This document shows positions 35,933 to 63,214 of a stretch of 64,000 bases of DNA, piece by piece. How positions within the stretch are numbered: position 1 is the stretch's first letter; each line of letters opens with the position of its first letter. The position numbers and the translations under genes are program-made. Under the pieces are notes generated by a model. It did no database searches, was not told the DNA's origin, and was given only the letters and a program-made list of their open reading frames with translations. Origin of the DNA: a virus; the IMG/VR virus record IMGVR_UViG_3300044729_002678, positions 97,619-161,618 of that record; one strand, 5' to 3'.

Positions 35933-36056
35933 GTAGTCAGGACAGGATTCGAACCTGTATGTGGTATATTTCTCTGTTTATTTTCTCTCATCCATTAGGA
36001 TATTGAGCCACATCGTTAAACAATAAATCGTGCGTCTACCATTCCGCCACCTGACT
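35933..36056 (-). repeat. tRNA-Leu-like scaffold repeat, copy 1
   Basis: AGTCAGGTGGCGGAATGGTAGACGC-[~73 nt variable]-ACAGGTTCGAATCCTGTCCTGACTA. Confidence 0.85.
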
Positions 36057-36210
36057 AATTTAGTAATTCATCTGTTGAGTATCCAGTCAACATTAAACAC
36101 TTAATTTCCGTTTTTAGCATTCTAAAAAATATCAAAAATGCTCTTCTACTAGGTCTTTTCCAAAACAATTTCCAAATATAATTTAATGTTCTAAACATAT
36201 CTTTAATTTT

Positions 36211-36325
36211 GTAGTCAGGACAGGACTCGAACCTGCATGTGGACCTTGTGTGTATTTCAACTATATTGCGGTTTGTTCCACTCCGTTTCACTATTCGGGG
36301 CGTCTACCAATTTCGCCACCTGACT
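36211..36325 (-). repeat. tRNA-like scaffold repeat, copy 2
   Basis: Same constant ends, different insert. Confidence 0.85.
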
Positions 36326-36326
36326 A

Positions 36327-36884
36327 TTATTTTTCTATCTCTTTGTTATATTTTATTTTAAGTCCTAATTCTTCTAAACCTTTATCATGACAATCTTTTA
36401 CTGCTTTCATTCCATGCTTGGTAGCAATTGTTTCAAGTACCCTAGCATGATAAGCTTCTTCTGGTTCAATAACCTTAAACAACTCAACCAAATCCTTTGG
36501 TGTATTAGGATCGTTTATGATAACTCTCATGCGTTTAAGTGATAGAGTTTCAGCATAAGCACCAATAGCAGCAGCGGTGCTACAATCAATTACACACGGA
36601 AGTGTGTTTCGCCAATACCTTCCATCTTTGGTAGATTTGATAAATAAAGTAATGTTTCTATCCTTTAGGATTTTTTCAACCAATACCGAATGTTGTGCTT
36701 CTTGTTCAGCTATTCTCCTAAAGATAACATACGCTTGCATATCATTTTTACAATAGGTGTCAGCAAAATTGATGAAACGTTCTTCAGCATCTTTCTCATT
36801 GTTATATAAACCAACAAGCCAGTGTTCAAGTTTTTCTTTATTATTTAAACAATCATTCCACCACTTTTTTGTTATTTTTAACAT
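36327..36884 (-). CDS. Ferritin-like diiron protein
   Basis: Two ExxH motifs (EQEAQH, EEAYH); likely start 36884. Confidence 0.7.
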   Translation of the reverse strand: MLKITKKWWNDCLNNKEKLEHWLVGLYNNEKDAEERFINFADTYCKNDMQAYVIFRRIAEQEAQHSVLVEKILKDRNITLFIKSTKDGRYWRNTLPCVIDCSTAAAIGAYAETLSLKRMRVIINDPNTPKDLVELFKVIEPEEAYHARVLETIATKHGMKAVKDCHDKGLEELGLKIKYNKEIEK

Positions 36885-36900
36885 AACATTATTTTTTTTA

Positions 36901-37023
36901 GTAGTCAGGACAGGATTCGAACCTGTACGATGCATTTCTCTTGCACCTCGGAATTAATGGCCTCACGAAATTAATTATTTCGTTAGCTTACTTGCTGCGT
37001 CTATCCAATTTCGCCACCTGACT
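36901..37023 (-). repeat. tRNA-like scaffold repeat, copy 3
   Basis: Same constant ends, multi-hairpin insert. Confidence 0.85.
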
Positions 37024-37155
37024 GTTTGTTTACATCTCTAAATCAAACACATACGCTATAATAATATAGGAGATAAGGAAAATACCTATAATTGTTAATA
37101 TAATTGGTCTCAATATTTTTACACTTACTAATTTTTCCATATTTTTTAATTTTTA

Positions 37156-37253
37156 GTAGTCAGGACAGGATTCGAACCTGCGTATGAGAGACTCATCTAT
37201 ACCTTTTTACCGATGCAGACTAACCCTTTGCGTTACCAATTCGCCACCTGACT
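37156..37253 (-). repeat. tRNA-like scaffold repeat, copy 4
   Basis: Same constant ends. Confidence 0.85.
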
Positions 37254-37254
37254 A

Positions 37255-37534
37255 TGTTTCCCTATCCTGAGATTCCAGACGGGTAGATTTTAACGGGTTT
37301 CTCTCACTGTTCGAGAACCATATCTCCCTCTATTATTTGGCAACCTAAAAGATTAACCATTCAAAAAGTGGGCCTTTTTCATTAGTGTCTTACCACATAA
37401 AAACCTGTCAACACTACTGGGAGGAGGTGTGTCGCTCTCCTTTATTCCCATGCCGTCCCACTCACGCTGACTGACGGTCTGCGGGTCTATTGTTTAAGTC
37501 TTAGACCAAAGACTCTGAGCACCTCTTACTCATT
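37255..37534 (-). ncRNA. Unidentified ~280 nt structured RNA in the tRNA cluster
   Basis: GC-richer, ORF-free, several hairpins; 3' hairpin with GGAAUCUCA loop. Confidence 0.45.
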
Positions 37535-37640: not shown

Positions 37641-37731
37641 AGGATTAGAAGCTTGGGATTTTCACCCTCGAACATCTTCATTGATACGTCTATCAATTAG
37701 ATTGAAACGCGTATTGCGACACTTCTAATTT

Positions 37732-39454: not shown

Positions 39455-39528
39455 GTGACCCCGAGCAGGATCGAACTGCTACTCCCCTGATTAAAAGTCA
39501 GGTGCTTTACCAATTAAGCTACGAGGTC
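39455..39528 (-). tRNA. tRNA-Lys(TTT)
   Basis: Loop CTTTTAA; 5' end overlaps the last codons of the HNH ORF. Confidence 0.9.
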
Positions 39529-40131
39529 ATATTCTTTTTTCAATCTATGACATCTATTATAGTTTCCACCTTTGGGAGTTAATCCAACAAAAATCAAAGA
39601 TTGTCTGAAATTCCATTTATTAATCAACAATGATTCTAACAAAGTTTCATCGGTAACTTTCATTTTTCTTTCTTTTTTATTTCTACCTCTCCATGTAGAA
39701 GTAATTGAATGGCAGTTAGGACATAACATTTCTAAATTATCTCTATTGTTGTTAAAGTGATTACCATCTTTATGCTCTAATTCTAAAACTAAAGTGGTGT
39801 TTAACCACTCACTCAATCCACATTTATTACATTTTTCTTCCTGTTCATAAAGTATTCTAAACCTGAGAGATTGAAAACTAAGTTCAGAGTATTCTGATTG
39901 TAATATTTGGTTTTTATGATTTTCTTTTCTTATATTTCCAATCTTAATCCAAAAACTACTAGGTCTATTGGAGTTTGATTTTTTAACTTTTTCAGAGTTT
40001 TTTGCAGATTTAGATTTTTTTAACTTATCAGATTCTGTCCAATTTCTACTATTTCTGCAAGATAACGAGCAATAATTAACTAAACCTCTAGATGGTTCAA
40101 ATTCATTTCCACATTTTTTACATTTTTTCAT
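39514..40131 (-). mobile_element. Free-standing HNH homing endonuclease inserted in tRNA-Lys
   Basis: CKKC...CSLSC N-terminus; CNKC...LELEHKDGNHFNNNRDNLEMLCPNCH; the tRNA-Lys 5' 22 nt is duplicated at 40195-40216. Confidence 0.88.
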
Positions 40132-40495: not shown

Positions 40496-40592
40496 GTAGT
40501 CAGGACAGGATTCGAACCTGTAATTAGGATTATTTAATCGGGCTCCATACCGTACCTACCTTTCGATGCGTCTACCATTTCGCCACCTGACT
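40496..40592 (-). repeat. tRNA-like scaffold repeat, copy 5
   Basis: Same constant ends. Confidence 0.85.
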
Positions 40593-40798
40593 ATTTCGGG
40601 ACGGGAGTAAGCCGCTCCCATTTGTCCCTACTGAATTATAGTTGGTTTGTTGTTATAAAGAACTCAAACCCATCTATCAAAAAAAAACTTCTACCTTCGT
40701 CTAGTGAACCTGTATCCTGCCGTTCCCTAATCAATCGATTGTTACTTTTACGTCTCAACAATCCACGTCCACGGCGGACAAGAAAAAAAGACGGCTTG

Positions 40799-40899
40799 TT
40801 GACTAATATGGATTCGAACCATAATCCCCCGCCCCAGATTTCAGCCTCAGATATTTACCTACTTTCAAGGGGCAGTGTGCTCCATTACACCATAGCCAA
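40799..40899 (-). ncRNA. tRNA-like RNA with ~33 nt loop in the anticodon arm
   Basis: TTGGCTA/TAGTCAA acceptor, CTGCCCC/GGGGCGG stem, TATGG-TTCGAAT-CCATA T-arm. Confidence 0.55.
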
Positions 40900-40947: not shown

Positions 40948-41048
40948 GTAGTCAGGACAGGATTCGAACCTGTATGTGGTAATCCTTTCAGATATTTCTC
41001 ACTTACGTTTTTGCCGTATTAGCGTCTAACCAATTCCGCCACCTGACT
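40948..41048 (-). repeat. tRNA-like scaffold repeat, copy 6 (insert identical to copy 11)
   Basis: Same constant ends. Confidence 0.85.
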
Positions 41049-41144
41049 GATTAAAAAAAAAAAGAAACAGAGGTCATCCAGTATACAGTGTGCGCCTCAC
41101 CTGATGCATCAAGGGACTGTGCGTTTGCGTTTTACTTGTTTCTT

Positions 41145-41261
41145 TGGTAGTCAGGACAGGATTCGAACCTGTATGAAATCATCTTTGGGTACATAAATGT
41201 ATTTCTACATTCAAGCTGACTTCTCACTTTGTTAGCGTCTAACCAATTCCGCCACCTGACT
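41145..41261 (-). repeat. tRNA-like scaffold repeat, copy 7 (encoded ACCA end)
   Basis: Ends ...CCTGACTACCA. Confidence 0.85.
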
Positions 41262-41343: not shown

Positions 41344-41676
41344 ATGGCTTTTCCAATATGTCAAAGAACGATGGTTTTTTAATGAGAACCAACTCAAGAA
41401 CAAAACAAATATACTAAACAATTTTCAATTTTCCAAATTTTTAATATTATCTTTTTGTTAAGAAAAAAAAAGCCCGAATTTTATTGTTCGGGCTTGCTCT
41501 TTTAGATTTGTATTTGTTATATACACATCCACGGCACAACCCTACCGCCAATATAGTTTACTGGTGTAAACCATATTTTATCTGATTGGAGTTGATTGTT
41601 TGAATGCATAGTATTTATGTTTTTATTCTTACAATAAGTATATAAAAAAATTTTAAAAATATGATAATGGTTTTTA

Positions 41677-41763
41677 GTAGTCAGTACAGGATTCGAACCT
41701 GCAATTTGCAACCTTAATGATGGTAAAGGATTCGGCTAGCCATGCCTCATTACACTACTGACT
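41677..41763 (-). repeat. tRNA-like scaffold repeat, copy 8 (divergent D-arm)
   Basis: AGTCAGT...GCAGGTTCGAATCCTGTACTGACTA. Confidence 0.7.
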
Positions 41764-42980: not shown

Positions 42981-46091
<3,111 letters not shown>

Positions 46092-47451
46092 AAACACTAA
46101 AAGACAAATGGCTCACCATCTATTTTTGCCTCACCGACAGAAATAATGCAGTCGCTTAGTTCAATATTTAAAAGTGGATTAGCCATTCTTATGTCGCTTC
46201 TTGCTCCAAATCTGTATTCTAACCACTCCACAATATCTACATCATCAGGGTTGCCGTTAAATTCTTTTGGCATTTCAATTTTTACATCTTTTAAATTTAG
46301 TTTTGACATTTTAATTAGTTTTTATAGTTTCAAACAACCGATACCTCCCACACGAATCGGTCAGGGTCTTGACTTGAGGCCCGAATCCGTTGGAGCGGGA
46401 TAGCACATACTCGCAGGCGTTACCCTTGGCCCGCACCTCAATCACCTTCCAAGGGCGGTCGTTGGTGCAAGCGGTCAGCAGGAGCAGAAGTAGGAATGGT
46501 CTCATAACTTAATTTTTTAGTTTTTTAATTATTACATAGTAAAGATAGGGATAAAACCCCATATTTCCAAGCTTTCTGTATTAAATTTAGGTTAAATTTA
46601 TTCATTTTCCATATCAATCCAATCCACATCACCATCTTCCATCATATTATTATCTTCCAATAGTGTCCAATACCGCTCTTTCCACCTATCTAATTCAACA
46701 CCATCTATGAGTTGAACTTGTCCCGTTTTTTTGGCAAGATATGCAATACCCCAATTAAGTATTTCTTCGGCCTGGTTTAGTAAACCATCTTCCAACATTA
46801 CCAATACCCGTTTATAATTTTCGGTTATGGTATCTAATTTTTTTGGTTTTCTTCCTCGCTTTTTCATATGTATAAAATTTTATCGGTATAAAGTAACAAT
46901 TGACCCAAAATTAGAGTCAAATACCCTAATCAAATTTTCGTAATCACCACTCATCATTTCGTTTACGATTTCTTTGGAATTAAATCCCAATTGTTTGGAA
47001 AGATTTTGAGCAAGACCAATGAGATAAAATGCATTTCCCTGCGGCCCTGTTAAATCAACTTCAATAGCTGAATTTTTTACTTTTTGCTTAATAGCCATAA
47101 CTTTTATTTTTAGTTTTTTAATTATTACATAGTAAAGATAGGTATAAAACCCCACTTTTCCAAGCTTTCTGTATTAAATTTAGGTTAAATTTTATGCTTT
47201 CCAAAGGTGTAATAATCTTGAGCCTCATCATCGGCACTCATTTTCATTTCATCATCAATCCTATCACTATATTTTATCTCATTAAAGATAACGGCTATCT
47301 TGTTCTTATCTTCTTGTGTGGCATGCCCACTATCTTCAAAAATAATAAGTAACTCACAAGCACTATTTAATAATCGTTTTAAGGTTTCGCTGGTCGTTTC
47401 GCTGGTCATCGTCTGTTGGTTTATTGGTTGAACAAAAGTCTTTGATGGTAG

Positions 47452-47946
47452 TTATGGTATTAGTTTGTATTTACGTCCGTTGTGTTCAATGATTTCGGGG
47501 GGGCGGTTGTCAATAATTGCACCAACTGAATCCTCAAAGTAGATGACATCGCCATTTGAATCAAATTCAGATTTAAACCAATATCCACTTGAATCTTCAC
47601 CATAGAAACGATAGTCATTTTTGTCCATAATTTCAAGGTTGCCATTGGCCTCAAAGTCCCAGTTCAGCCATTGGCCGATTGTTTGTCCGTCTTTCATGGT
47701 TAGGGTATTAGTTGATATTTTTTGCCGTTGTGTTCGATGATTTGAGGGGATGCGGTTGTCAACAATATTACCGCCTGAATTTTTAAAGTAGATAACATCG
47801 CCATTTGAATCAAATTCGGATTTAAACCAATATCCTTTTGAAGTTTCATGGTATATATCGTCGCCATTCTTGTCTTTAATTTTAAGGCTGCCATTGGTCT
47901 TGAAATTCCAGTTCAGCCATTGGCCGAGTGTTTGTCCGTCTTTCAT
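47452..47946 (-). CDS. Tandem paralog pair (MKDGQT.GQWLNW.F) fused by a frameshift
   Basis: Two ~80 aa repeats; the native C-terminus of the first copy lies in another frame. Confidence 0.65.
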   Translation of the reverse strand: MKDGQTLGQWLNWNFKTNGSLKIKDKNGDDIYHETSKGYWFKSEFDSNGDVIYFKNSGGNIVDNRIPSNHRTQRQKISTNTLTMKDGQTIGQWLNWDFEANGNLEIMDKNDYRFYGEDSSGYWFKSEFDSNGDVIYFEDSVGAIIDNRPPEIIEHNGRKYKLIP

Positions 47947-47950
47947 AGGT

Positions 47951-48274
47951 TTAGTGTTTAGTTTCTTCAATTAGTTCTCCGTCTTTCCAATGACGGGTTT
48001 TGGTAATGTTTCCCTGTTCATCAAATTCCTCCTCAATTCCATCCGCCTTACCTTCTTTGTATGGGGTTCTCCAATGGATTTTTCCGTTTTCATAGAACAT
48101 CTCCTCAATTCCATCCTCCTTACCTCCTTTGTATGAGGTTCTCAAATGGATGTTTCCGTTTTCATAGAACCACTCCCAAATACCTTCTTCTTGCTCTTTT
48201 GAGTTTAGTTGTCCTTTGACCCATATATTTCCGTTGGGGTAATATTCAATGTAGGGTGTGAGTTCGTTGGTCAT
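47951..48274 (-). CDS. MORN-variant repeat protein, paralog C
   Basis: 3' ~150 nt identical to paralog A. Confidence 0.8.
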   Translation of the reverse strand: MTNELTPYIEYYPNGNIWVKGQLNSKEQEEGIWEWFYENGNIHLRTSYKGGKEDGIEEMFYENGKIHWRTPYKEGKADGIEEEFDEQGNITKTRHWKDGELIEETKH

Positions 48275-48654
48275 AGGTTTAGTGTTTAGATTGTTATGTG
48301 CCATTTTAGTGAACACAATTCCGAAGATTCCACTCTTGAAGGTCAATGTACTTATCATAGGTACACTCTTGACCACTTTCAATCTCATAAATTTGATTAT
48401 CAAAAGCGTCTATTTTATCTTGTTTTACAATCCATTCTTTATACTCGTCAAGAGTGTTGAAGCCAAACATTTGACCTTTCTGATTATTTACTACTATTAT
48501 CATAATTTTTGAATTAATTTGGTTTATTGGTTGAACAAAAGTGCGTAAATGAATCTGCCGAAGAAAATTACACTAAGCACTACTGCTAACGTTGTAAATC
48601 CATACTCAAGTATAGTTACAACTAAATGGTTATTGGTTTTTGGTTTCATAACTT

Positions 48655-49209
48655 TTATTTAGAAGCGGATTGAATTATACTAAATGCTTTACTAACCACT
48701 TTTTGGTCAGATACATATTTTACAGTATCATTGAATTCCCTACCCACATTTACCACCTCATTCACCACCCATTCAACTTTACCAAATGGAGCCCGATTAT
48801 CAACAAACACATACTTAACCGAAGCTTCCAACACCATACCCGTCAAACCACAAACCGAACCTGAAGTTTCATAACTCTCATAGATATCATGCATACCATT
48901 GAATGTACCATACTCCCAAAGGTGGGCAAATTTTTCTACCTCATAAGCAATTTGTGAATCAACGGGAGCACCCATTTTAGTGTAAAGATTAACCCGAAGA
49001 GAATTACCACCAGAGAAAGAGTCCGATTTTACCGAACACATAACCCCATTATAATTCATTTTAACAAACTGCTTTACCAATGAACCTGCGATTGGTGCAT
49101 TGATATGAACATATTTTACGCCGGAATTTGACCCGTAGGTTTTAGTACGGAGGGCTGTGGTGGGAACTTCAAAGTTCTGACCATTAATTTGGATTACCAT
49201 TTTTTTCAT
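48655..49209 (-). CDS. LPD29-like (polyvalent protein-associated) domain protein
   Basis: SVKSDSFSGGNSLRV...GTFNGMHDIYE. Confidence 0.55.
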   Translation of the reverse strand: MKKMVIQINGQNFEVPTTALRTKTYGSNSGVKYVHINAPIAGSLVKQFVKMNYNGVMCSVKSDSFSGGNSLRVNLYTKMGAPVDSQIAYEVEKFAHLWEYGTFNGMHDIYESYETSGSVCGLTGMVLEASVKYVFVDNRAPFGKVEWVVNEVVNVGREFNDTVKYVSDQKVVSKAFSIIQSASK

Positions 49210-49287
49210 AATGTTTGTTTTTTTAACTTACATAGTAAAGATAGGGATAAAACCCCATATTTCCAAGCTTTCAATATTAAATTTGCG

Positions 49288-49656: not shown

Positions 49657-51260
49657 CTTTTATTGCTCGTTCAAAGGGTTAGTTTCGATTAATAAGTTGT
49701 CAAGTACGGTCATGAAAGGAAATTCTGTGTAGTATTCAACTCCGGCAACAGTTCGAATCGATTTTATTCCTCCTAAATACAGTACAGTTTCTAATGTCAA
49801 ATGATACATAAAATATTTTTCTTCTAACTCTTTAACAACTTTGGCGATTGTGTTGGGGTAATGAACGGCTTTTTTATGCAAAGCATAAACCACTTCAGGT
49901 TTTAAACGGGAATAAAGATTTTTCATATATTATTTTTATTTTTAGTTTCTCAATTATTACATAGTAAAGATAGGGATAAAACCCCATATTTCCAAGCTTT
50001 CAATATTAAATTATCGTTAAATTTTGGAGGAGGGGGGTATTGGTCCAAACGAAAAAAAACACCAATACCCAATCCTCAACCATCTATTATACCAATGATG
50101 CCATACACTCTTTAGCGTATGTGGACAAATACGGGTAATGGAGAGCAATCTTCAGCGTATGTGGAAGATGAACTCATAATCATACCATCTGTCTCTACCT
50201 CTACCATATACTCACTCCATACCCGGCGTGCCTCTTCGTGCAAATGCGCAAGTTCCTGTGAAGAGGAATATTCGAGCTGATAAGTGGTTTCGGGCTCGGT
50301 GGTGTTGGGGAAATCTCCGGTGGGGAAATAAACTCTGAAAGTAGCAATCATAAAAGGGGGGTTTAGTTTCTCAATCATTACATAGTAAATATAGGCATAA
50401 AACCCCATATTTCCAAGCTTTTTCCCCAAAAGTTATCCACATTTTACAAAAAAAAAGTGTCCAATTTAGTGGACACTTTCATATAGAGTATTTGGTATTG
50501 TTTTACTTCCAATCAATTTTAGGGCAGTATTTGTGATACTTTGCTTTCACCATCTCAACGATGATATTGTCTGTCTTTTCAGTATTACTATTCTTTGATT
50601 GCAAGTGTTCTTTTGTTTTAATAATAGCCCAAGTAATGCCAACTATGATAAGGGAAGTCCAAACACAAAAACCAAAAACTATCATTACCATAAGTAATGA
50701 ATCCTCATCAGGGATGTAAAAGAAAAGACTCAATGTTGAAATCGTGCAAATAATAGCAGCGATAAAGAACCAATAAACAAACGATGTTCCGAGCATATCA
50801 CCGTATGTGTCCCGACGACTACGTTTGTAGTTGATGATTTCATAAGGTAGGGTATAAATTGCAAACAAAGGTGAAAGAATCACCGCAGTAACCAGTTTCC
50901 AAAAGTAAGGACACAGGTTGGTGGGCATTGTGTCGGTTTTATAGAACCAACGATAGAGTTTTGCCGAGAGTGAGTTTTGATTTAGTTTCATTTGTTTTTA
51001 TTATTTTATTTTCACGGTAGACCTAATGGTTCCATTTATCTCTACCCTAATATCTAGCACATTTGTAGAATCCACCACTATGTATCGACATCCGTCAACA
51101 CTATACACAATGCCTTTTGGGTATTTCTTTTGAAGCATCTCCTTATCTTGAGAAACAGTGGTGGCATTACAACTTACCAATAATACACCGATGCTGAAAA
51201 TTGCAATTAACTTTTTCATGTCTTTTGTTTAGTTTGTTTAGTTTTGTTTTAAATTGTTTA

Positions 51261-51369
51261 GTAGTCAGTACAGGATTCGAACCTGTAAGGAAGGAGGATT
51301 ACTATTAAATCTAACAAATGTTACCAAGTTTAGATTCCTCAATGCGTCTACCAATTCCGCCACCTGACT
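51261..51369 (-). repeat. tRNA-like scaffold repeat, copy 9
   Basis: Same constant ends; outside the tRNA cluster. Confidence 0.85.
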
Positions 51370-51375
51370 GTTTGA

Positions 51376-51558
51376 TTATTCAATGTACGACCATTTAATA
51401 ATATGTTTCTCTTCACATACATCATTATACGAAGGTATGTACCATTCATCATTTTCATAATAGCAAACCTCATATTTCGGTACGTTCTTCAAAGAACTTT
51501 GAATTAGTACCCAACTACCATCTTTTGGTTTTCCATTTTTAATTTCAACCCATTCCAT
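51376..51558 (-). CDS. DUF551-like small protein between scaffold copies 9 and 10
   Basis: MEWVEIKNGKP...IIKW pattern. Confidence 0.55.
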   Translation of the reverse strand: MEWVEIKNGKPKDGSWVLIQSSLKNVPKYEVCYYENDEWYIPSYNDVCEEKHIIKWSYIE

Positions 51559-51573
51559 ATTCTTTAATTTTTA

Positions 51574-51657
51574 GTTGTCAGTACAGGATTCGAACCTATA
51601 TGAACTTTCATTCTCGGGAAGGTTTCCCTAGCGTCTATCCAATTCCGCCACCTGACT
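51574..51657 (-). repeat. tRNA-like scaffold repeat, copy 10
   Basis: Short ~30 nt insert. Confidence 0.8.
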
Positions 51658-51748
51658 GTGTTTCATATCTCTTTATCTTACATAGTAAATATAAGGATAA
51701 AACCCCACATTTCCAATCTTTTTATGTTAAATTATCGTTAAATTAATT

Positions 51749-52936
51749 TCACGACTTCTTGGTTGGGATTAGCACCGTTGCGTTATCGTCTTTCACGAGT
51801 TCCCAGTTGTAAGTGGGTGAAAGGTAGAACGAGCGTTTATCTAGTTCCTGATTGTCTGAATTTCTGATTTGTATAAAATCATTCTTAAGTCCCAAAGATT
51901 TACAAACATCCGCTGAAACAACTCTTTGCCCGGGTTTATTGGCGTGCTCAGAGAAGTCAAAATACTTGCTATCCTCAGGGAAGCAGTTGGGGTGGTTCTT
52001 CTTGATTTTTGGTTTCCATCCTCCACAAGCCATATCGTGCAGTCCACGGATGGCTTCTACAGTAGTAGTTCCATCCAACTTGAAGTGTTCTGTAAGGTAT
52101 TCCTTTTGTGGGGTAGTGGCTGCGTTGTAGTACTCGTTGAGTAACTCACGGGAGATTCGAATTGATTTTGACATGGTTGTTTGGGTTGGGTTTGTGATTT
52201 GACGGAATTGTTCAAGGGAGATTTCTACAAATTGAGGATAATCGGCAATACAATTTTTGATGTCTCCAGCATAGTACTTGCTTTCGTCCTTCGGATGCTC
52301 GGACATTAGAGTGTATCCAACCTGAAAATGGAAATCTGTGTCTGCATTTTCCTCCCACCATGCTTTGAGTTCTTTAAAGTTTTCTTCCGTGGCTTCAATG
52401 CACCAGTGTTCAGGGTGTTTCATGGGTTGTGAGTTTGTGATTTCACGGAATTGTTCGAGGGTGATTTCTTGGTAGTGACATTTTAGAAAGTTTCCAAAGT
52501 CCGAAAAAAAGTAAGTACCGTCGTATGGGTGTTCAGACACAAGGAATGAGCCTGGTACAAACTTGTCGTCCCATTTTGACGCTTTACTCGTTCTTTTGCT
52601 CAACCTCCAACGATTGAGTTCTGCGTGGTTTTCTTTGGTTACGGGGATGTACCATTTTTCGGGGTGTTTCATAGGTTTTGGGTTTGTGATTTCACGGAAT
52701 TGTTCAAGGGTTATTTTTTGGTAGGATGGATACCTTGCGGTAAAACCTTTTTCGGAGCCACACCAATAATAACTTGAGTCTGTTGGGTGCTCTGAAAGTA
52801 GGAAGGCGCCTTCTCTTAGGCGGGTGTCTGGGTCCTTTGTCCATCTGCTTTTTAAGGCTTGCTTTCGCCACCACGTTTGGAGTTCTGCGCGGTTCTCTTG
52901 GGTAACAGGTATGTACCATTTTTTTAGGTGTGTCAT
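51749..52936 (-). CDS. Protein with three tandem ~85 aa repeats plus a C-terminal domain
   Basis: M.H...W.I..T.EN..EL...I.LEQFR.ITN three times. Confidence 0.75.
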   Translation of the reverse strand: MTHLKKWYIPVTQENRAELQTWWRKQALKSRWTKDPDTRLREGAFLLSEHPTDSSYYWCGSEKGFTARYPSYQKITLEQFREITNPKPMKHPEKWYIPVTKENHAELNRWRLSKRTSKASKWDDKFVPGSFLVSEHPYDGTYFFSDFGNFLKCHYQEITLEQFREITNSQPMKHPEHWCIEATEENFKELKAWWEENADTDFHFQVGYTLMSEHPKDESKYYAGDIKNCIADYPQFVEISLEQFRQITNPTQTTMSKSIRISRELLNEYYNAATTPQKEYLTEHFKLDGTTTVEAIRGLHDMACGGWKPKIKKNHPNCFPEDSKYFDFSEHANKPGQRVVSADVCKSLGLKNDFIQIRNSDNQELDKRSFYLSPTYNWELVKDDNATVLIPTKKS

Positions 52937-54879
52937 TCGTTTTTTAGTTTTATATTCAAAAAGGATTGGTGATTTGACGTGTTAGAATTTTTGAATCTTT
53001 TTCTGGACGAGATTCGATGTCCAATGAAATGGACTTGCCGTAGCATTTAGCAACGATGATGTCATCGCCGTAGCTGTCTTTTTCAACGGCAAACCTTACA
53101 AACCCAGCGCCTTCGCATTTTTCATTATAACCAACCATGTCTTTGTGTTGGATTGCCGCGGAAAAGATGATTCCACTCCCTTCAACGATTACGTATTTTG
53201 CTTCGTACATTTTTATATACTATTTAACTCCAACCATCAAAGTATATACATCACATTCCATCAACCTAAACATATCTTTAGGGAACACACTTTTCAAATC
53301 GGTAGTATCAAAGTACTCATTTTCGTAAATGGGTAATGATAGTTTGGTGTCTTTACGCATGGTGTGTCTTTCGACCCACTCATTAACATCGACTACCAAC
53401 ATGTAATTTCCGTTTCTTAACATAGCTTTTATTTTTAATATGATTAAATATACGAACGAATTTTATGGTGTTAAGATTGAAATGATCAAAACTAACAAGA
53501 TTGAATAAAGTATAAAAGTTATACCAAACCCTACTATAATTCCATCAAAATATGTTTTTTCTTTTTTCATGTTTTGTTATTTTATTAAACTTTAAATTTC
53601 CAATTCGCCAACCACCACTTATTATAGGCAAGGGTGGTGATATATACCAACCCAAATAATGCCAATACGGTAATGGTTTTCAATACTACAATATAGATTG
53701 CGAGTAAATTGAGGATATCTGATAGAATTTCCATATTATTTACAGTTTTGTTCTTTGGTGGAGTAAAGGTTGACAAGATAATTAAACTTTTCAACAGCCT
53801 CAAATACCGAGCAGGTAACTGCTTTAAGGAGCATGGATGATTTTAGTTCGCTGAACATAATGGTATCATTTGATAGTTCAATCGAGAGGTTCAATTTTGG
53901 GAAGGTTTTTTTCATACTGTTTGTTTTTTTAACTTACATAGTAAAGATAAGGATAAAACCCCATATTTCCAAGCTTTCAATATTAAATTTGCGTTAAGTT
54001 TTTCTCAATAATGAGACGAACCCGTTCCCTATCAACGGAATCAAATTCAATGTCGCTTAATGGTATGCTTTCCAAATACTCATTACAGGCGGCAATAATC
54101 CCCTTTTTTGTAGTAAGTGGGTAAATACCATTACGCAACTCATAAAAAGTTATACAATATTTGTAAAACTCTTTGATTAAAACTGAATATTTTTTCATAT
54201 CTCTTTTTGTTACATAATAAAGATACTACAAAAACCCCATATTTCCAAGCTTTTTCCCCAAAAGTTATCCACATTTTACAAAAAAAAAGTGTCCAATTTA
54301 GTGGACAGTTCTTATTGACCTTGGGTTTGCAAATCTATAATCCCCAAAGCCTCACTTATAACGGAAACAATTCGATATGGAATTATTTTATTTATTATCT
54401 ACTCAAAAATGATAGTTGAACTTCTTTTAAAAGTTTCCTACCCAATTTTTTATCATTACGAAAGGTATATTTGTTTTTTACACTCATAAGTGTATTAGCC
54501 CTCACCAACTTTTCGATTTCAGTTTCGTTATAGCCAATACTTTCCCATGTCGCAATTAATTTACTTTCAACCCTCTGAAGTTGTTCACTAATATCATTTT
54601 CGATATGAGATTGGTTTATCTTAAAAAAGATATTACCACGTCTTATTTTATCCCGAAAAGAATTACCCATCCCAAATATACAAAAGTTTTGGTAAATCTG
54701 CCTACGTTGGTTATAATCCATACCTACCATTTCTTTTTCCATAATTTCTAATGTTTCTTCGAAACTGTACCTTTTATTATTTGCACACATAATTTTATTG
54801 TTTAATATTTTTTATTTAGTTAGTTATTACAAATATACGAAGTAAATTTTGTTTTTCCAAATCCTTATAGAAAAATTTA

Positions 54880-57800
54880 CTACTCATATTTGAGGACGTT
54901 AGTCCCAATTCATAGGAAGACAGTCATGAGAAGGTACATCATAGAATTTTTCACCTGTTTCAATATTTTGTAGTGTATAGTATCGTGTACCTATCCTATA
55001 AGGTGCATAAGTTGACAAAATTTTATGAACCTTATGCCTATATCGTATTAAATCATCACTAACATCAGATATATGTAATTTTTCATTACTATTATCCAAG
55101 TTTTGTTCTAAATTTTTATCTTCTTCTGTATCACCATCTACCGTTCCTTGTAAAAAGGATAAGTATTTTATCTTTTCAATTTCTTTATCAGTATAAAACC
55201 TACCACTAACACCAAATAAACCCAATAAAAGGTTTTGTGCTTGGTTTTCAGTTATCAGTTCTAACCTAAGTTTTTCTGCTATTTCTAAAATTTGTTCTTT
55301 CATATCTTTTACTGTGTTTATTTGTGAACCGTTAGCGGTAATACTAATAACCCAACAAATACATCTTTCTACCCCAAGCTTTTTTTGCTTCTTGTTCATT
55401 ACCACCATAAACAATCTGATACCAATCCACCCACATTTGAGGCTGGGCAACTGGATTTGGTTCAGATGAAGCACTACCGCTAACAGCAGGTTGCTTCAAT
55501 GGCTTAGTTTCTTTCTTTTTTGACATTTTATCATTTATTTAAAGTTTGTAATCCTACACAAATACAACATACTGGTGGAATATAAGTGGATGTAAACTTC
55601 ACAAATAAACGAGTTAGTTGCAATTTTTCTTACACCACATAATCTTGCTGCCTTTTCGCAAATGAACTAATCGTAATTCATAACCTTTATCCATCATTTG
55701 TTGCATTTCTTCTAATTCTTTAAGTTCTACATCATTGAAAGAGCGTTCATTTACTCCATCCTTAATCTTAATGTAGTTCTTAGCAAAATCATAAAAACTG
55801 CAACTAACATCGTGTAGTGCTTGTTTAATTTCATCACTAATTTCTTCATCTGTTTTTTTAACATTTTTCTTTTTCATATTCTATATTTTTTAATTTGTAA
55901 AACAATAATTTAACTAAACCTAACAAATGATAAACAACATTAAAACGATTGTTTATCATCGGACGTTATGTGTAATTTAATCAACTTTGTATTTCCTACC
56001 ACCTAAGTGATGTTCGTGTATAAACTTTGATTTACATCTTGAACATTCATACTTACTATGATAATTACTTTTCCAAATCAAAGTTTTCTTATGTATTCCA
56101 ATTAAACACAATAAACTACACATAACATCAGATATATGTAATTTTTCATTACTCTTATCCAAGTTTTGTTCTAAATTTTTATATTTTTCCATCTTATTAA
56201 TTTTTTACCTTGTGTTCTATATATATTTCTCTGTACATCTTATATTGTTTCCCGTAAAAATCAACCAAGAAAAAATTCCAATTATCATTACCATTTCTAC
56301 CTATTAACATTGCGTGTATATTTTGTAGTTTATAATACATCATAGCCACCTTACCATAATTGTCGGGATTATTTTTTAATTCATCAATCTCGTCCAATCT
56401 TTTTTCTAATTCAGTTTTAGGTATAATCAACCTCATAAACTTTAAAAAATAATCCCTAATTTTTTCTTTTGTTTTCATAATTCAAAAATTAATACTAAAA
56501 TATAACAAGGTATATGTGAAATACCTCATAAAGTTTCTACTAATTATTTAAGTTCTGTGGTAAGGTACTTCACATATACCCAACCGTTAGTGGTAATTTT
56601 AATCTTTGTATCTTCTCCATACCGCAGAACCATCAATACCATCTTTCCACATTCCTTCGTCATTTTCCTTAACAGTTTTGAAGAATTCTTTAACTAAATC
56701 CAACACTTCTTTTTTATCCATTTTTACACCTTCGTAATATACATCATCTCTTTGATTTCTGAAGAATTCTTCAAAACGATTAAAACTACCACTAACATCA
56801 GATATATGTAATTTTTTATTACTTTTATCTAAGTTTTGTTCTAATTTTTTATCTTCTTCCATTTTGTTGAATTTTATGTTAAAACTACATATATCTGAGT
56901 ATCGTTATAAACAATAAAAAACCTTAAAGTGGTGGTTCTAAATTGTCTTTTATCTTATCATAAGATTCTTTAATCGCTTCGGATAATACTTGTTCGATAG
57001 GTTTTTTACTATTTATAACAACGGATATATGAAATAAAAAATTAATAGATTCTACAAACTTTCTAATTTCTTCTTCTGATTTACATTCTCGTTGAACAAC
57101 ACAAAATTCACCCCTAACTACTTTACAAGTTTGGGTTTCTATGTTGTAATAAAGTATTGGTAATCTACAAGGGTTTCCACATATCTCTGTATCTTCTTCA
57201 CCTAAAACCCAAACTTGTTTTCCAGTGAATACATCAAGTATCTCACTAAAACCTAATTCTGTTAAATTTTGTGTTGTTATCATCGTTCTGATTATTAATT
57301 TTTTACATTCATATATCCGCAGCCGTTATGTGTAATTTATTCAAAAATAATCACGTTTAAGTTGTTCCTCTTTAATTAGAATCTCCCTTTGTTCTTTCAT
57401 TTGACCAATTACTTCATCGAAATTTTTACTCATTTGTCTTTCAAACTGATTTTCATTTTGGTAATCTAATGACACTTCGTGTTTAACATCAAATCCGTTT
57501 TCTCGTAAAAATTTCTTCAATAAGAAAATTAAACGTGATTTTCCACTCATTGCTCTACCAGATACGGTAATAATTAATTTTTCCTTTTCCATTTTATATT
57601 TGTTTTGAGTTTAATATAATTAAATATAAGAAATAAATTTTGATTTTCCAAATTTTTTATCAGGTTAACTTAAACCTACACAAATACAACATACTGGTGG
57701 GATATAAGTGGGTGTAAACTTCACAAATAAACGAGTTATAAGTAATATTATTTTTTAATTGGTTTCTTCTTGTTCTTTTTAGGTTTTTTACATTCATCAA

Positions 57801-59930
57801 GTTTAGTCCCAGCCACATATTCAGCCATTTCGGGTTCATTATTAAGAAACCAATTTATTCGGTTTATTTTTTGTTCTTGTGTTAATTCTATATTCATTTT
57901 TATTAAATTTATTTTGTTAAAAAAATAATACATACACATAACAAAGTGTATAAGTAATGTGGCTAATAAAGTTTATCTGTAAGTTATGTGTAATGTTACT
58001 CACCATTATACTTAAATTCAAACAACTTTGGTTTTAATGTATTACCAATTGGTTGAACGATTGATAAATCACTTGATGTTTCTCCGTGAATAACTTTCAT
58101 TAAACCAGGTATTCCATAATTCTCAAATGTTATTTCATACAAATCGCCAAAAAATGATGTATCATTATTACTAATTGTATGTGTTACTTCTATAACATAC
58201 TTTTTTGTAGTTATCAATGATTGTTGTAAATTAATAAACCAAAGTTGTGTTCCACTTGGTATCACATACTTATCTCCAATTTTTACTTTTTTCATATTTC
58301 ATTTCTTTAATTTTAACTTTTTAAAATTTGTGAGTTCATTACTCCATCAATATCCAAGAAAATAACTTTTTGCACAGGTTTTGGATTTAACTAATGGTTC
58401 TTTCAAAAACAATGAGATAACCTCCTCTTAGATGACTGCCACCACCTGTTGATATATGTCGTGCTGTTACAGATACAATCAACCAACCATCTTCCAAGAT
58501 TTTATCTATTTTGTCTTGAACATCTTTGTAAGATTCATCATCAGGAGTCACCAATACTTTTTGTTCTTTAAGTGCTATCATATTATTTTTAATTTAATCG
58601 TTCAAAGATATGACCTACAAACTCACCCCTCTGATACTGGTAGAGTATAAGTGGGTGTAAACTTCACAAATAAGCGAGTTAGCAGCAATGCTATGACTGC
58701 AAGCCAACACCATATCGTTTAAACCCATATTTCGTAAGTGTATAGTATTCTCCGTGTTCATTCACCCATTGATTAGGTCTTACTTCAATTAATCCTATTA
58801 GCCTTGCAAGTGCATCATATAAAGCACTGCTGCTAACATCGTATTGCTGAACATTGCCAGCTTCATCGGTAATTTCAACTTTTACTTTCATATCAATATT
58901 TATTTTTATTAAACATTTGTCTTTCAATTTAACTTAATACTACACAAATACAACATACTGGTAGCGTATAAGTGGGTGCAAACTTCACAAATAAGCGAGT
59001 TAGCAGCCATAATCAGAACAGACCGTTTCAAAGTCGTTCATAACAGCATCTAACAATTCCCATTTATCAGGATTACAACTTGTTGAACCTACCAGCAAAA
59101 ATTGAATTGCTATATCGTGTTCAGTTGTATGTTGACCTTTTTCGGCAAATCTTAATCTTTCTGATTTAAGTGCCTCAATCAATTTTTGTTTTCTTTCTTC
59201 GTTCATATTTTTAGTATTAAATTTTACAAAATTACGGCTGCTAACACACGTTTGGCGAAAGTGGCGGTTCAGTGCTCCGCAGACACATTTGTGGTTAATC
59301 AAACATTGGTTCTCCGCATCGGCTTTTGTGGTGAAAATCGCCACCTTCGCCGAGCGTGGGAACATTATGTGCAAGGCTACAATTCGTACTTTGAATAAAA
59401 GGCAACCTCACCATCATTTACCCATTGGTCAATTAAGTCGCTAACATCATTAATGTATTGTTCATTTTTACCTGCTAATTTAGTTGCTTTTAGATTTTCC
59501 CAAAATTCACCACTAAATTCATCCATATTATTCATGTAGTGAACAACAATTTCAAGTTTCTCTTTTAAGTTTTCCATTTCGTATTTAAATTAAATTTTGT
59601 GGTTAATGAAAAGTCAGTGCATTTAAGCCTCCACTGACAGCAAGCGGCAAAACGTTAGTGATAATAAAAATTAAATCAATCCTTGTTTCTTTAACATATT
59701 TACGATTGCCTTTGCTGCTGCCTTAACTGAATCAGGGTCTGTTTCCATATCACCCTCTTTCATAGAATAAGGCACATATCGTAAATATACTTCACTATCA
59801 ATTATATCTTTAATCATATCAATAAGTTCTTGCTCATTTTTACTATCACTAACATCAGATATATTCAAGTTTTCTTGATGTTCATTGAGACTTTGTATGT
59901 GTTTTAAATCTTTCATCTTCGTAAATTAGT
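54880..59930. mobile_element. attC-like gene-cassette array II
   Basis: Full hairpins at 55205-55337, 55919-55971, 56501-56592, 56791-56910, 57014-57331, 59240-59370; additional cores at 54898, 55613, 57735, 57983, 58678, 58999, 59654. Confidence 0.75.
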
Positions 59931-60202
59931 TTTTAGCTAAACTAAGAATATAATCAGCATCATTTTGTGTTGATATTTTCCCCTTTATTAGTAATTTATC
60001 ATAACCTGTATAAAGTTCCCATTTATCATCATACAACAAAACATAATGTTCTCCGTTTGATTTATAACCCCCAACATATGCCCCCTTTTTTAATACGATT
60101 AATTTTTTCATATTCATTTTTTTAACTTACATAGTAAAGATACAACAGAAAACCCATATTTCCAAGCTTTCAATATTAAATTATCGTTAAATTTATCCAC
60201 AT

Positions 60203-60703
60203 TTATTTACACACCAAATGCCTCTTTACCTTTTTCTTTACTACACCCCCCACAATAATATCATAATCCTTATTATCCATCACCCAGTCCAAATCAATCG
60301 TTGTAGCATAGTACGAACCCGAAGATGAAGATTTCCAATCCCCCTTCAGTAAACTCGTCCACATAAAAAACCACTTTATCCCACCACCACTATCATCGTA
60401 TGATACTAAAAGATAATCCGAAGCACGCTTTGAATACTCACCACCCCTCCAAATATGGGTAGTTTTTGAGGTCTTAATCTCCAATGGAATACCACCAACC
60501 ACCAAATCCGGTTCGGAATCCAGACGGGGCGAAACGCATTGCGGAACAACTTTGGCAAACGAAGCCTCCAATATATTCGATATCAACTCCGATTTTAATT
60601 TCGTTGATAGTGAATCGTAATCCACTAACCCCCTAAATGTATAAAACCGATTGGTGGCCTCCCCCACCACATCATTAATCCATAATCGTATCGTTTCGTT
60701 CAT
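60203..60703 (-). CDS. PD-(D/E)XK nuclease, restriction-endonuclease-like
   Basis: SEPDLVVGGIPLEIKTS. Confidence 0.6.
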   Translation of the reverse strand: MNETIRLWINDVVGEATNRFYTFRGLVDYDSLSTKLKSELISNILEASFAKVVPQCVSPRLDSEPDLVVGGIPLEIKTSKTTHIWRGGEYSKRASDYLLVSYDDSGGGIKWFFMWTSLLKGDWKSSSSGSYYATTIDLDWVMDNKDYDIIVGGVVKKKVKRHLVCK

Positions 60704-61654
60704 TCTTTACTAAATATTATTTGTTTTGATTATTATGAGTGCGATTATCATAGGTGCGCTTATCAAGGGAAAATAGTGCTTATCGTATGTTCAAGGGGAG
60801 AAGCTATGGTCGAAAACCTGACCTCTCGATGGGGATGAGTCCCCTCCCATAACACAACATAAATTATTTTCGTGCTTACACTAAAATGCCTGCCCCCCCC
60901 TGTCTTATAACATAACCCTTCTCACTAACACCATTCGGATTTTTTTTACCAAACTAGCCTCCTTCAGGCCTACCACTTTTTGGGTTGTGTTATATTTGAG
61001 TTGAGCTATATTTGGTTACAGCCCTTTCCACTTTTTGGAATTCGCAACTGCTCCCATCCTCATATACTCCATTCTACACCATTCCGTTGGTGATATATCG
61101 GATTGTGTGATACGCATGATATTTGGGTTGTGTTCTAACCCTAATACTTTTGGGTTACTATCTACAGGTTTATAGATAAAGTCATGTGGGGAGAATGCTT
61201 TTTTACTATTTTGCGTTTTTTTGTTGAAAAGGTTTAACATAGGTGTTATTTTTTATTGCTGATATTTTTTTTGTTTATTTCATCCAAAATCCGGACTGCT
61301 TCATCCTCATACACCCAACCGTTAGGCACAATACTAAGACTGTACCCATTCACAATCAAATTCTTGACAAAGATTTATAAATGCTTGTTTTTCACTTCCA
61401 CATTCGTTGATGTATTTTTCAGAAACACAACCAAAATCACCACCATTTCTTGTCCACTCAATACCATACTTAGTTCTTTCAATCCAACAAATGTGTTTCC
61501 CTCTTTTATCAGCATCATCAATAAAACAGATAGGTTTCTGTTTGTCAAGAATTAAACTATAAAGTTGTTCGTAATCTTTAGATAATTTATACATACTATC
61601 GTATTGCTTCAAATCGCTTAATTTAATTTCGTTTTTCATATTATTTAATTTTTT

Positions 61655-61755
61655 GCAGTCAGGACAGGATTCGAACCTGTATGTGGTAATCCTTTCAGAT
61701 ATTTCTCACTTACGTTTTTGCCGTATTAGCGTCTAACCAATTCCGCCACCTGACT
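61655..61755 (-). repeat. tRNA-like scaffold repeat, copy 11
   Basis: Identical to copy 6 except discriminator G. Confidence 0.85.
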
Positions 61756-61987
61756 AAAATTTGTTAAGGCCATTTTAAATCGGGTGACTTATTGTCATCT
61801 TGAAACTCCCAATAAGTATCACCAAGTATTTGATCCACCTCGTCTGATGTATTTTCAAATGCGTCAAAAATAACTTGCATCACTTCCTTTTCGGTTACAT
61901 TTAGAATTTTAGCAATTCCAATAATGTGGTCTTCTAATGGTAAATCTCTCATTTCGTTTTAAAATTAATCCGGTTTATAATTGTTTT

Positions 61988-62091
61988 GCAGTCAGGACAG
62001 GATTCGAACCTGCAAAGTATGGTGAGTTCATCCGTTGTACCCATACCTTTAACATTACTACTCAAGCGTCTAACCATTCCGCCACCTGACT
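61988..62091 (-). repeat. tRNA-like scaffold repeat, copy 12
   Basis: Same constant ends, discriminator G. Confidence 0.85.
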
Positions 62092-62145
62092 ATAAATGAA
62101 GGTTCCATACTTAGTCTTTGCGGGAAGTCACCTCCAACCCACCTC

Positions 62146-62244
62146 GTAGTCAGGACAGGATTCGAACCTGTAAGTACCGACTGGGCTTATTTCTGTTTTA
62201 AATGCATCGCCTGTCCAGTGCGTCTACCATAACGCCACCTGACT
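62146..62244 (-). repeat. tRNA-like scaffold repeat, copy 13
   Basis: Same constant ends. Confidence 0.85.
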
Positions 62245-63133
62245 ATGTTTACTCTTTAATCAATTTTTTATACGCCTTATCAGTTCCAAGACCCATCATA
62301 TCAATATTTTTTCCTTGGTCGTACCATTCAGTTTTAATCCAGTTGTCATCATGATACCAAGTTTCCCAACCATTTTCACGAAGTAATTTAGATTTTTCTT
62401 CGTAGTTTTCAATTTCGTGTTTTTGTTTTAATAGTGCCATGTATTTTATATTTGTAGTCAGTATTCGATTAACTTTTTACGTAATTCATCATTTCAACCA
62501 TTTCACAACAAATAAATGAAATAATTTTTAATAATGAACAAAGTTGAACTCGTCATTCAAATCAACAAAATATCCATTATCCTGTGCATTTTTAACTATT
62601 TCCATAATATCCTTTGTTTGTGCATACCATCTTTCATAAGAATTAATATCACCATTCAATACTTTATCTGTTCCTGGAATCATAACTGCCTCATCATTAT
62701 CAATTGTGTTTGCAGTTTCTCCATCAATTAAAAATGCACAAATATCACCATCAGCATCAGTTAGTTTAACTAAATATGCATTCTTATTTTGTTGATTTTC
62801 ATTCACTTTTTCGTTAAAATTAAGTATGGGTTTCATAGTCGTTTTTTATTTGTTTTGCTTTTAGTTGATTTGATTTGCAGTCAGGACAGGAATCGATTAA
62901 CTTTTTACGTAATTCATCATTTCCACCATTTTCTGAATCAACAATTCCATTTCATCTTTGTTAAGATACAACTTACCATTCAATGTTTTATCGTCCAACT
63001 CTTTTGTTTCAACTATAATGCCATCAAACTCATCTGTCGGATAAATGCTTACGTTTTGTTCTTCAGTTGCAATAACTGTTTTGTTCCAAACTTTGTTTTT
63101 CATTTGTTTTGTTTTTAATTTGTTAATTTGTTT

Positions 63134-63214
63134 GTAGTCAGTACAGGATTCGAACCCGTAATATCAGCTTGCTTATTAGGCTTGCTTCTGCGCTACCAAT
63201 TCCGCCACCTGACT
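63134..63214 (-). repeat. tRNA-like scaffold repeat, copy 14
   Basis: Short insert. Confidence 0.8.

Follow-up and report, generated by a model that had tools for sequence, protein, structure and literature searches.

Repeated anticodon-less tRNA-like RNA genes as putative module joints and candidate processing signals in a phage contig from lake water

The stretch of DNA described here, hereafter the window, comprises 64,000 nucleotides (nt), positions 97,619 to 161,618 of the IMG/VR virus record IMGVR_UViG_3300044729_002678, and forms the last 64 kb of a 161.6-kb phage contig with 33% G+C and a completeness of 84% (CheckV). It carries many copies of an element termed the scaffold, which has the fold of a transfer RNA (tRNA) with a hypervariable insert where the anticodon arm would be. 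Sequence comparison with related phages supports the reading that the near-invariant halves of the scaffold are joints where these phages have exchanged modules, namely, the open reading frames (ORFs) between scaffolds and the inserts within them. The whole explanation, held with moderate confidence, is that scaffolds are genes for anticodon-less RNAs that would serve both as joints for general recombination and as processing signals, and that two half-copies in the window are a deletion remnant and its duplicate.

The consensus of the scaffold reads AGTCAGG-UG-GCGGAAUUGGUAGACGC, variable center, U-ACAGG-UUCGAAU-CCUGU-CCUGACU-A-C. Its near-invariant halves are a 5′ block (AGTCAGGTGG) and a 26-nt 3′ block (ACAGGTTCGAATCCTGTCCTGACTAC), and its center is 25–75 nt long in the consensus and 25–145 nt long across 241 elements. 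The scaffold has the frame of a class II, leucine-type tRNA in which the anticodon and variable arms are replaced by the insert; the encoded RNA retains the acceptor stem, D arm, elbow, and T arm and has no anticodon. A covariance model of the scaffold (R1), trained on 120 family members, found 14 full copies in the window, all on the minus strand and scoring 50–78 bits, with a clean gap between them and the best canonical tRNA, the phage's own tRNA-Leu(tag), at 39.5 bits. Two half-copies also lie on the minus strand of the window, and the rest of the 161.6-kb contig contains no scaffold copies. Six tRNA-like elements, five of which are scaffold copies, matched the Rfam tRNA model with 29.5–47.4 bits as a cloverleaf with acceptor, D, and T arms, and apart from this generic model, Rfam gave no match to the scaffold.

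The first-pass annotation of this DNA had proposed that scaffolds act as recombination sites for cassette shuffling and that relatives should be compared for gene gain or loss exactly at scaffold boundaries. The relatives compared were G001 and G002, two contigs approximately 97% identical to one another and mosaic with respect to the window; G004, L009, L043, L046, L047, L062, L084, and L095 are further scaffold-bearing contigs. The comparison was positive, as seen in a one-unit insertion or deletion (indel) between G001 and G002, the contexts of a small gene called ORF A, alignment ends, and a module test. G001 equals G002 plus one unit made of a 13-nt leader, ORF A, and an 84-nt scaffold, with CCTGACTACA at both borders. 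The two contigs are collinear through a 102-nt scaffold to CCUGACUACA, the extra unit of G001 ends in an identical CCUGACUACA, and both then proceed identically toward tRNA-Ser; the extra unit is a one-unit indel bounded by the scaffold 3′ end. ORF A of the window shares 96% amino acid identity with that of G001 and lies at a different place, before tRNA-Pro. The similarity between the two loci begins in the T arm of the scaffold upstream and stops in the D loop of the one downstream, and both inserts are unrelated. In L009, ORF A (76% amino acid identity) is found between two scaffolds whose inserts and D arms are again different. Similarly, the interval between tRNA-Gly(tcc) and tRNA-Pro(tgg) holds scaffolds of 122, 79, and 108 nt in the window, G001, and G002, respectively, with unrelated inserts. 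Between G001 and G002, 6 of the 18 internal alignment ends fall in scaffolds or no more than 5 nt from them.

In the module test, all element pairs from different contigs were scored for a shared upstream flank, insert, and downstream flank, and the canonical tRNAs of the same loci served as the control. Both flanks were shared around a different middle in 11 scaffold pairs and one canonical tRNA pair, while both flanks and the middle were shared in six and 26 pairs, respectively. With both flanks conserved, the insert differs in 11/17 contig pairs vs. 1/27 for canonical tRNAs. The insert was shared in 38 scaffold pairs, 30 of which had both flanks different; for tRNA bodies, these numbers were 91 and 49. 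The comparisons and the module test thus show flanks and inserts assorting independently of one another, and the two conserved halves are where they are joined. The earlier proposal is supported as regards exchange at scaffold boundaries among relatives; the integrase or T-arm mechanism that it implied is not supported.

The first-pass annotation had also noted that two half-copies are cut at the T loop, tRNA T arms being common crossover points of integrases. The positions and structure of the half-copies are as claimed. The first (TCGATTCCTGTCCTGACTG; 62877–62896, minus strand) consists of the 3′ part of the T loop and the 3′ strand of the acceptor and abuts the TAA of ORF68 (62897–63103, minus strand), a frame of 68 amino acids that is conserved in four other contigs with 72%–82% amino acid identity in tblastn. 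The second (TCGAATACTGACTA; 62454–62468, minus strand) follows a 40-nt duplicate of the ORF68 tail (62469–62508). In G004 and L084, the ORF68 orthologs have a full scaffold 5–6 nt past the stop, whereas the window has lost the stretch from the last codons of ORF68 to the T loop; the first half-copy is therefore a deletion derivative. Because the 40-nt tail was duplicated along with the half scaffold, the two half-copies go back to one event rather than to separate breaks. The second is a duplicate of the same junction, made at the insertion or exchange of a 102-amino-acid ORF (62528–62836, minus strand), which is flanked by the two repeats of ORF68 tail plus half scaffold. The half-copies are read here as a deletion remnant and its duplicate, not as footprints of crossover in the T loop.

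By analogy with the promoter-early stem-loop (PeSL) cassettes discussed below, the exchange fits best with ordinary homologous recombination and gene conversion between dispersed direct repeats. The contig encodes a RecA/UvsX-type recombinase (E value 2.6e-57), and such a phage system would recombine the invariant halves of the scaffolds with no need for an integrase. A site-specific recombinase crossing over in the T loop, such as an integrase at a tRNA attB site or an integron integrase at attC, is very improbable, even though it would explain single-gene cassettes between repeats with conserved ends and variable centers, and even though the break lies at or close to the GAATCC of the T loop both in the window half-copies and in three truncated copies from L046 and L047. 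No match to a tyrosine integrase (PF00589), a serine recombinase, or GIY-YIG was found in the 161.6-kb contig, at its CheckV completeness of 84%. Clustering of 2,258 ORFs from 139 scaffold-bearing loci gave no protein family present in more than 17 loci, the top clusters being DUF932, a terminase domain, and NUMOD3. Truncated copies make up only approximately 10 of 250 elements; one in L047 arose by a deletion that runs from GGAAT in the D loop to CGAAT in the T loop and is explained by GGAAT microhomology, and others break elsewhere. The two window half-copies count as one event, as an ORF tail was duplicated with them. The T loop may be a mild hot spot of microhomology, which is not evidence of integrase-type crossover. 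Also unlikely, though less so, is that scaffold units are discrete selfish elements that move via an RNA intermediate or via homing endonucleases cutting scaffold DNA. Insert-sharing pairs share no more than 4 nt upstream in 22/24 cases and no more than 6 nt downstream in 23/24, and the units are bounded exactly by the mature RNA ends. Copies 6 and 11 of the window, 20 kb from each other, are identical over exactly A1 to U72 and have unrelated surroundings. Genes for NUMOD3-type homing endonucleases occur near scaffolds in 12/139 loci, and tRNA regions harbor T4 segB and the T5 HNH endonuclease genes. However, the halves are common to all copies, so that crossovers inside them would by themselves yield identity ending at the RNA ends, which says nothing in favor of an RNA intermediate. 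The contig has no GIY-YIG match, HNH and reverse-transcriptase families not having been searched contig-wide; the ten larger window ORFs scanned in Pfam include no such nuclease or reverse transcriptase, and no target-site duplications were seen.

A more serious alternative, although still a doubtful one, is that scaffolds act at the RNA level only, as tRNA-type processing or stabilizing signals or as carriers of functional insert RNAs, and that the shuffling is the general plasticity of tRNA regions. The conserved elbow and maturation features, the compensatory changes in inserts described below, and the stable RNAs T4 rnaC and T5 RNA1/RNA2, annotated in the same kind of locus, agree with this, as do the G001/G002 indels at canonical tRNA boundaries. 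It is countered by the far more frequent replacement of inserts than of tRNA bodies at the same site, by the indel unit bounded exactly by the scaffold 3′ end on both sides, and by an acceptor stem and T arm that in many contigs are invariant in sequence, beyond pairing, which RNase P and RNase Z do not require. That scaffolds are functionless, decaying pseudogenes of a duplicated tRNA-Leu gene has next to no probability: the anticodon is absent and a few copies are truncated, as would be expected, but in over 240 elements from more than 100 contigs, the halves, the tertiary-contact bases, and C74 hardly vary while the middle is hypervariable, the D stem covaries, and each phage has 8–14 copies.

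Several observations weigh against scaffolds as exchange joints and processing signals. Canonical tRNA boundaries are likewise indel breakpoints between G001 and G002, the whole tRNA region being plastic, and this general plasticity may explain part of the scaffold signal. At same-site insert swaps, perfect 5′ identity often covers just 8–20 nt, which is short for homologous recombination, and within invariant halves no crossover point can be located. The ORF68 homologs in L084 and L047 lack a scaffold on the upstream side, and the link between cassettes and scaffolds is therefore not strict. In addition, an abundant RNA contig of a relative is unbroken from a scaffold into a 103-nt trailer. 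The recombination role may be a selected property of the scaffolds or only a by-product.

The RNA shape of the scaffolds is under selection. In approximately 245 non-redundant elements, there is almost no sequence variation in the acceptor stem and T arm, and the tertiary-contact bases U8, A14, A15, G18, and U48 are kept. Covariation is found in the D stem and the T stem; the D-stem pair 11-39 is CG 70 times and UA 12 times, and the observed covariation was reached by 0/500 shuffles. A canonical anticodon stem-loop, defined as a 5-bp stem and a 7-nt loop with U33 and purine 37, occurs in 2/240 elements vs. 2.8 expected from shuffles, which is the chance level; the scaffold RNAs would be unable to decode. 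On the same ground, scaffolds were ruled out as real tRNAs with introns or odd anticodon loops; ARAGORN makes a call for only one of the 14 copies in the window, an implausible tRNA-Ile(aat). One family member, L043:13030-13101 (minus strand), has a regular 5-bp stem and the 7-nt loop CUUUUAA on the same acceptor/T-arm frame, resembles tRNA-Lys(UUU), and may be a genuine decoding relative of the scaffold. The inserts comprise 214 distinct sequences among 241 elements. Some related insert pairs have compensatory changes (seven observed vs. 2.5 in column-shuffled controls), which is only suggestive. A strong fold or a universal closing helix of the inserts was rejected, as the mean z-score of the minimum free energy is only −1.0 and a common closing stem is absent. 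Inserts were likewise rejected as antisense to the phage's own genes, with a longest complementarity of 11–14 nt, equal to that of shuffled inserts.

The family is widespread in phage contigs. A 23-nt 3′ block was found in at least 120 IMG/VR contigs, many of which have 7–12 copies clustered on one strand with a phage tRNA array. In 185,579 species genomes of bacteria and archaea, only 18 contigs have the block, all of them from metagenome-assembled genomes (MAGs) and none from an isolate genome. This distribution rules out a copy of a host tRNA and makes the scaffold a phage element. The MAG contigs were binned to Chitinophagia, Flavobacterium, Saprospiraceae, and similar groups, and the ORF at 33869–35425 of the window has a C-terminal sorting domain of the type IX secretion system; on both grounds, the host is probably a member of Bacteroidota. 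The phage DNA is present in lake-water metagenomes. A full-text literature search found no description of the scaffold family, although it returned papers on PeSL and a preprint on other tRNA mimics.

The scaffolds share their strand with the phage tRNA genes and small early ORFs. The window has 28 canonical tRNA genes, all on the minus strand, between 31330 and 41343. An example of the unit order is tRNA array, copy 4, ORF36, copy 3, ferritin-like gene, copy 2, ORF A, copy 1, and tRNA-Pro. No room is left for a promoter in the spacing from a scaffold to the ORF that follows, which means that tRNAs, scaffolds, and small ORFs must be transcribed together. A minus-strand scan of 35.9–37.3 kb gave promoter-like matches at chance level and terminator-like matches that were weak and internal to ORFs. 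The only strong intrinsic terminator of the minus-strand scan lies at 41470–41495 (minus strand); after it, a promoter-like TTGGAA-17-TATATT (41436–41408, minus strand) heads the unit of tRNA-Gln and copy 7. Promoter-like sites of this kind recur at 41436, 38493, and 51716 (51716–51688). The same motif, followed by a leader and ATG, makes up a promoter-leader repeat, D1, which is present at 51650–51745 and ten other sites and heads many early genes. A second dispersed repeat family (D7, D9, D10, and D12), of the form GGCTGACG...TTCACGAATGAGCGAGTTA, lies between small ORFs at 42981–59014.

A role of scaffolds as mRNA processing signals, the other function that had been suggested for them, is plausible from their substrate features. 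These are the coaxial acceptor/T-arm helix, the intact elbow, and, in 245 elements, T at position −1 (U-1) in 78%, the discriminator A73 in 91%, and C74 in 98%. All 28 canonical tRNA genes of the phage have an N73-C-A trailer and only five encode the full CCA, which suggests a common 3′ maturation route that would need CCA completion. Since the N73-C-A trailer is common to scaffolds and true tRNAs, scaffolds carry the maturation signals of real tRNAs, and given U-1, A73, C74, and the intact elbow, one would naturally expect RNase P and a 3′ tRNA nuclease to cleave them. RNase P would cut at the scaffold 5′ end and the 3′ tRNA-processing nuclease after A73/C74, which would release the scaffold RNA and split the polycistronic transcript into single-gene mRNAs. 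The window also encodes, in the early region near the scaffolds, a 187-amino-acid protein (44440–45003, minus strand) with an Rv2179c-like 3′-5′ exoribonuclease domain (Pfam E value 2.6e-10), which may act on RNA 3′ ends.

Metatranscriptome contigs cover parts of scaffolds and the adjoining spacers, with approximately zero depth over nearby ORFs; such contigs show no transcript ends, and the repeats draw reads of many phages. Metagenome DNA joints at scaffold halves, for example, from 36327 to 36889 with deletion of the ferritin-like gene, have sides shorter than 30 nt, may belong to other phages, and were not used as evidence. Two further ORF-free intervals on the minus strand are represented in RNA. 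At 40639–40756, between copy 5 and another tRNA-like element, short metatranscriptome contigs reach a depth of approximately 66–104 (run X16), with approximately zero depth over the ORF at 39514–40131, and this interval may be a further abundant small RNA. The 97-nt spacer between copies 7 and 6 (41050–41146), which ends in AGAAACA...TGTTTCT and a T run and is covered by an RNA contig, may be a structured RNA or a long-loop terminator.

The scaffold copies, all on the minus strand, lie in several groups. In the first group, copy 1 (35933–36056; 124 nt, R1 73.3 bits) is directly upstream of tRNA-Pro(tgg) and matches the Rfam tRNA model with 38.3 bits, with a 57-nt insert replacing the anticodon arm. 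It is accompanied by copy 2 (36211–36325; 115 nt, 65.0 bits), copy 3 (36901–37023; 123 nt, 65.8 bits), and copy 4 (37156–37253; 98 nt, 68.2 bits), the last with an Rfam tRNA score of 47.4 bits and a 31-nt insert at the position of the anticodon loop. Copy 5 (40496–40592; 97 nt, 78.1 bits), whose insert is also present in G001 and L062, copy 6 (40948–41048; 101 nt, 78.5 bits), and copy 7 (41147–41261; 115 nt, 75.7 bits), directly after tRNA-Gln, occupy an ORF-free stretch at 40.5–41.3 kb beside another tRNA-like element and other structured RNA. This other element (40798–40898, minus strand) is of a different kind, having the acceptor GGCUAUG, a 100-nt body, and an oversized center, with 29.5 bits in the Rfam tRNA model and only 18 bits in R1. 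Copy 8 (41677–41763; 87 nt, 50.3 bits) has a divergent D arm and an ortholog in L095. Further on are copy 9 (51261–51369; 109 nt, 70.3 bits) and copy 10 (51574–51657; 84 nt, 53.2 bits); the latter begins 9 nt past the ATG of D1 and hence seems to have replaced a gene body. The last group consists of copy 11 (61655–61755; 101 nt, 75.9 bits), copy 12 (61988–62091; 104 nt, 67.5 bits), copy 13 (62146–62244; 99 nt, 72.1 bits), and copy 14 (63134–63214; 81 nt, 65.3 bits). Copy 14 is the one called tRNA-Ile(aat) by ARAGORN, has no credible anticodon stem, and carries an insert that recurs at other sites in G001 and G002.

Consecutive copies had been described as bracketing one small ORF each, and this is true at five places, all with minus-strand ORFs, but not for copies 5–7, where non-coding RNA is found. 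Copies 2 and 1 enclose ORF A (36055–36198; 47 amino acids), whose TAG stop overlaps bases A1 and G2 of copy 1, and copies 3 and 2 enclose the ferritin/rubrerythrin-like gene (36327–36884; 185 amino acids, Pfam Rubrerythrin E value 2.3e-6), whose TAA is 1 nt before copy 2. The latter also has a weak, sub-cut-off match to MiaE, a tRNA-modifying di-iron hydroxylase. A hydrophobic ORF of 36 amino acids (37030–37140) lies between copies 4 and 3, an ORF of 60 amino acids (51376–51558) between copies 10 and 9, and an ORF of 62 amino acids (61764–61952) between copies 12 and 11. The label "DUF551-like," formerly given to 51376–51558, is unsupported, as there was no Pfam match even at E values up to 10; in searches of the cassette ORFs against Pfam and PHROGs, the rubrerythrin-like match was the only one. 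Another ORF (62249–62440, minus strand; 63 amino acids) has its TAA 4 nt before copy 13. The closeness of ORF stops to the scaffold 5′ end, noted earlier, was borne out: seven copies lie no more than 8 nt past the stop of an ORF with an ATG start, ORF A overlapping and the six others at 1–8 nt. Across the family, a frame that is open over at least 30 codons ends no more than 25 nt before the scaffold in 123/227 elements, vs. 41 in a control shifted by 37 nt. On the other side, five copies have an ORF start 13–17 nt past the scaffold 3′ end, with an A-rich leader, and the family-wide distance from scaffold to ATG peaks at 14–19 nt.

At the DNA level, the closest known system is the modular shuffling mediated by PeSLs in T4-type phages, in which short direct repeats surround single ORFan genes in hyperplastic regions (PMC2839356; PMC4122927). 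Indels and replacements between close relatives end in these repeats, the exchange is ascribed to general phage recombination with no dedicated recombinase, and mini-circles were detected by inverse PCR (PMC2839356). The scaffolds are similar in being dispersed direct repeats around single ORFs of a variable region, here 14 copies on one strand with ORFs bracketed at five places, and in both systems, the end points of indels and replacements between relatives fall inside the repeats. The window phage also has RecA/UvsX and lacks matches to the three site-specific recombinase and endonuclease families searched. In contrast, the PeSL repeat is an early promoter with a terminator stem-loop, whereas the scaffold is a gene for a tRNA-fold RNA and the promoter-leader D1 is a separate family. 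The scaffold further differs in having two homology blocks around a variable center, and because two separate blocks flank it, the center is itself an exchangeable module.

At the RNA level, the scaffolds come closest to the small stable RNAs from the tRNA regions of T4 and T5, which are analogs and not members of the family. T4 species 1 RNA (rnaC) and T5 RNA1/RNA2 likewise have their genes among same-strand tRNA genes and small ORFs of the phage; the T5 RNAs are annotated as "tRNA-like stable RNA with unknown functions," and T4 rnaC ends in the T arm GGGUUCGAAUCCC and an acceptor-like stem. Their membership was rejected as R1 scores them at the tRNA level (rnaC 21.9 bits, T5 RNA2 22.0 bits, and no match for RNA1 at E <0.01), compared with 50–78 bits for members. 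They also differ in occurring once or twice per genome and not as dispersed repeats. To our knowledge, no role in gene shuffling has been reported for T4 rnaC or T5 RNA1/RNA2. Class II tRNA-Leu (RF00005) shares with the scaffold the 7-bp acceptor stem, the Leu-type D arm GGCGGAAUUGGUAGACGC, A15/U48, the T arm UUCGAAU, and A73; in contrast, the scaffold has no anticodon stem-loop, has a hyperdiverse center, and has an acceptor sequence absent from isolate bacterial genomes.

Punctuation of transcripts by tRNAs is known from animal mitochondria and from bacterial mixed tRNA-mRNA operons such as tufB and secG-leuU. As in those systems, coding regions are separated, with hardly any spacer, by tRNA-shaped units, and cleavage by RNase P and RNase Z would free single mRNAs; however, scaffolds are not functional tRNAs, and their cleavage is a prediction. 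Integron cassettes resemble the scaffold arrays in having single, mostly promoterless ORFs separated by repeats with conserved ends and variable centers. They differ in that the contig has no IntI-type integrase (no PF00589 match), the scaffold is a sense-strand tRNA fold whereas attC is a bottom-strand hairpin with extrahelical bases, and the ORFs of scaffold phages are not all in cassette form. A tRNA-gene attachment site differs as well, since no integrase or resolvase was matched on the contig and the duplicated segment includes 40 nt of an ORF tail and flanks one 102-amino-acid ORF.

How large lytic phages lacking integrases gain and swap accessory genes is only partly understood. We know of no worked example of integrase-free gene swapping in such phages other than the PeSL repeats. 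The scaffold would be a different repeat doing the same job, a tRNA-shaped RNA gene abundant in lake viromes whose center is a second exchangeable module; the comparative shuffling test and the explanation of the half-copies are added here. In lake metagenomes, the k-mer depth of the scaffold 3′ half is 20–90 times that of unique phage DNA, which makes the repeat a major point at which assemblies break and probably also a hub of gene flow. It can be proposed tentatively, as a speculation, that the scaffold halves are a "universal adaptor" under second-order selection across many unrelated freshwater Bacteroidota phages, that is, an integrase-free analog of the integron in which one RNA gene cuts the transcript and permits exchange of ORFs and inserts between co-infecting phages, with the inserts as a fast-evolving arsenal, for example, of decoys or aptamers against host factors. 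If cleavage by RNase P and RNase Z is true, the scaffold would be a natural "tRNA scaffold" for excising and stabilizing small RNAs and a case of tRNA-punctuated mRNA in a bacterial virus.

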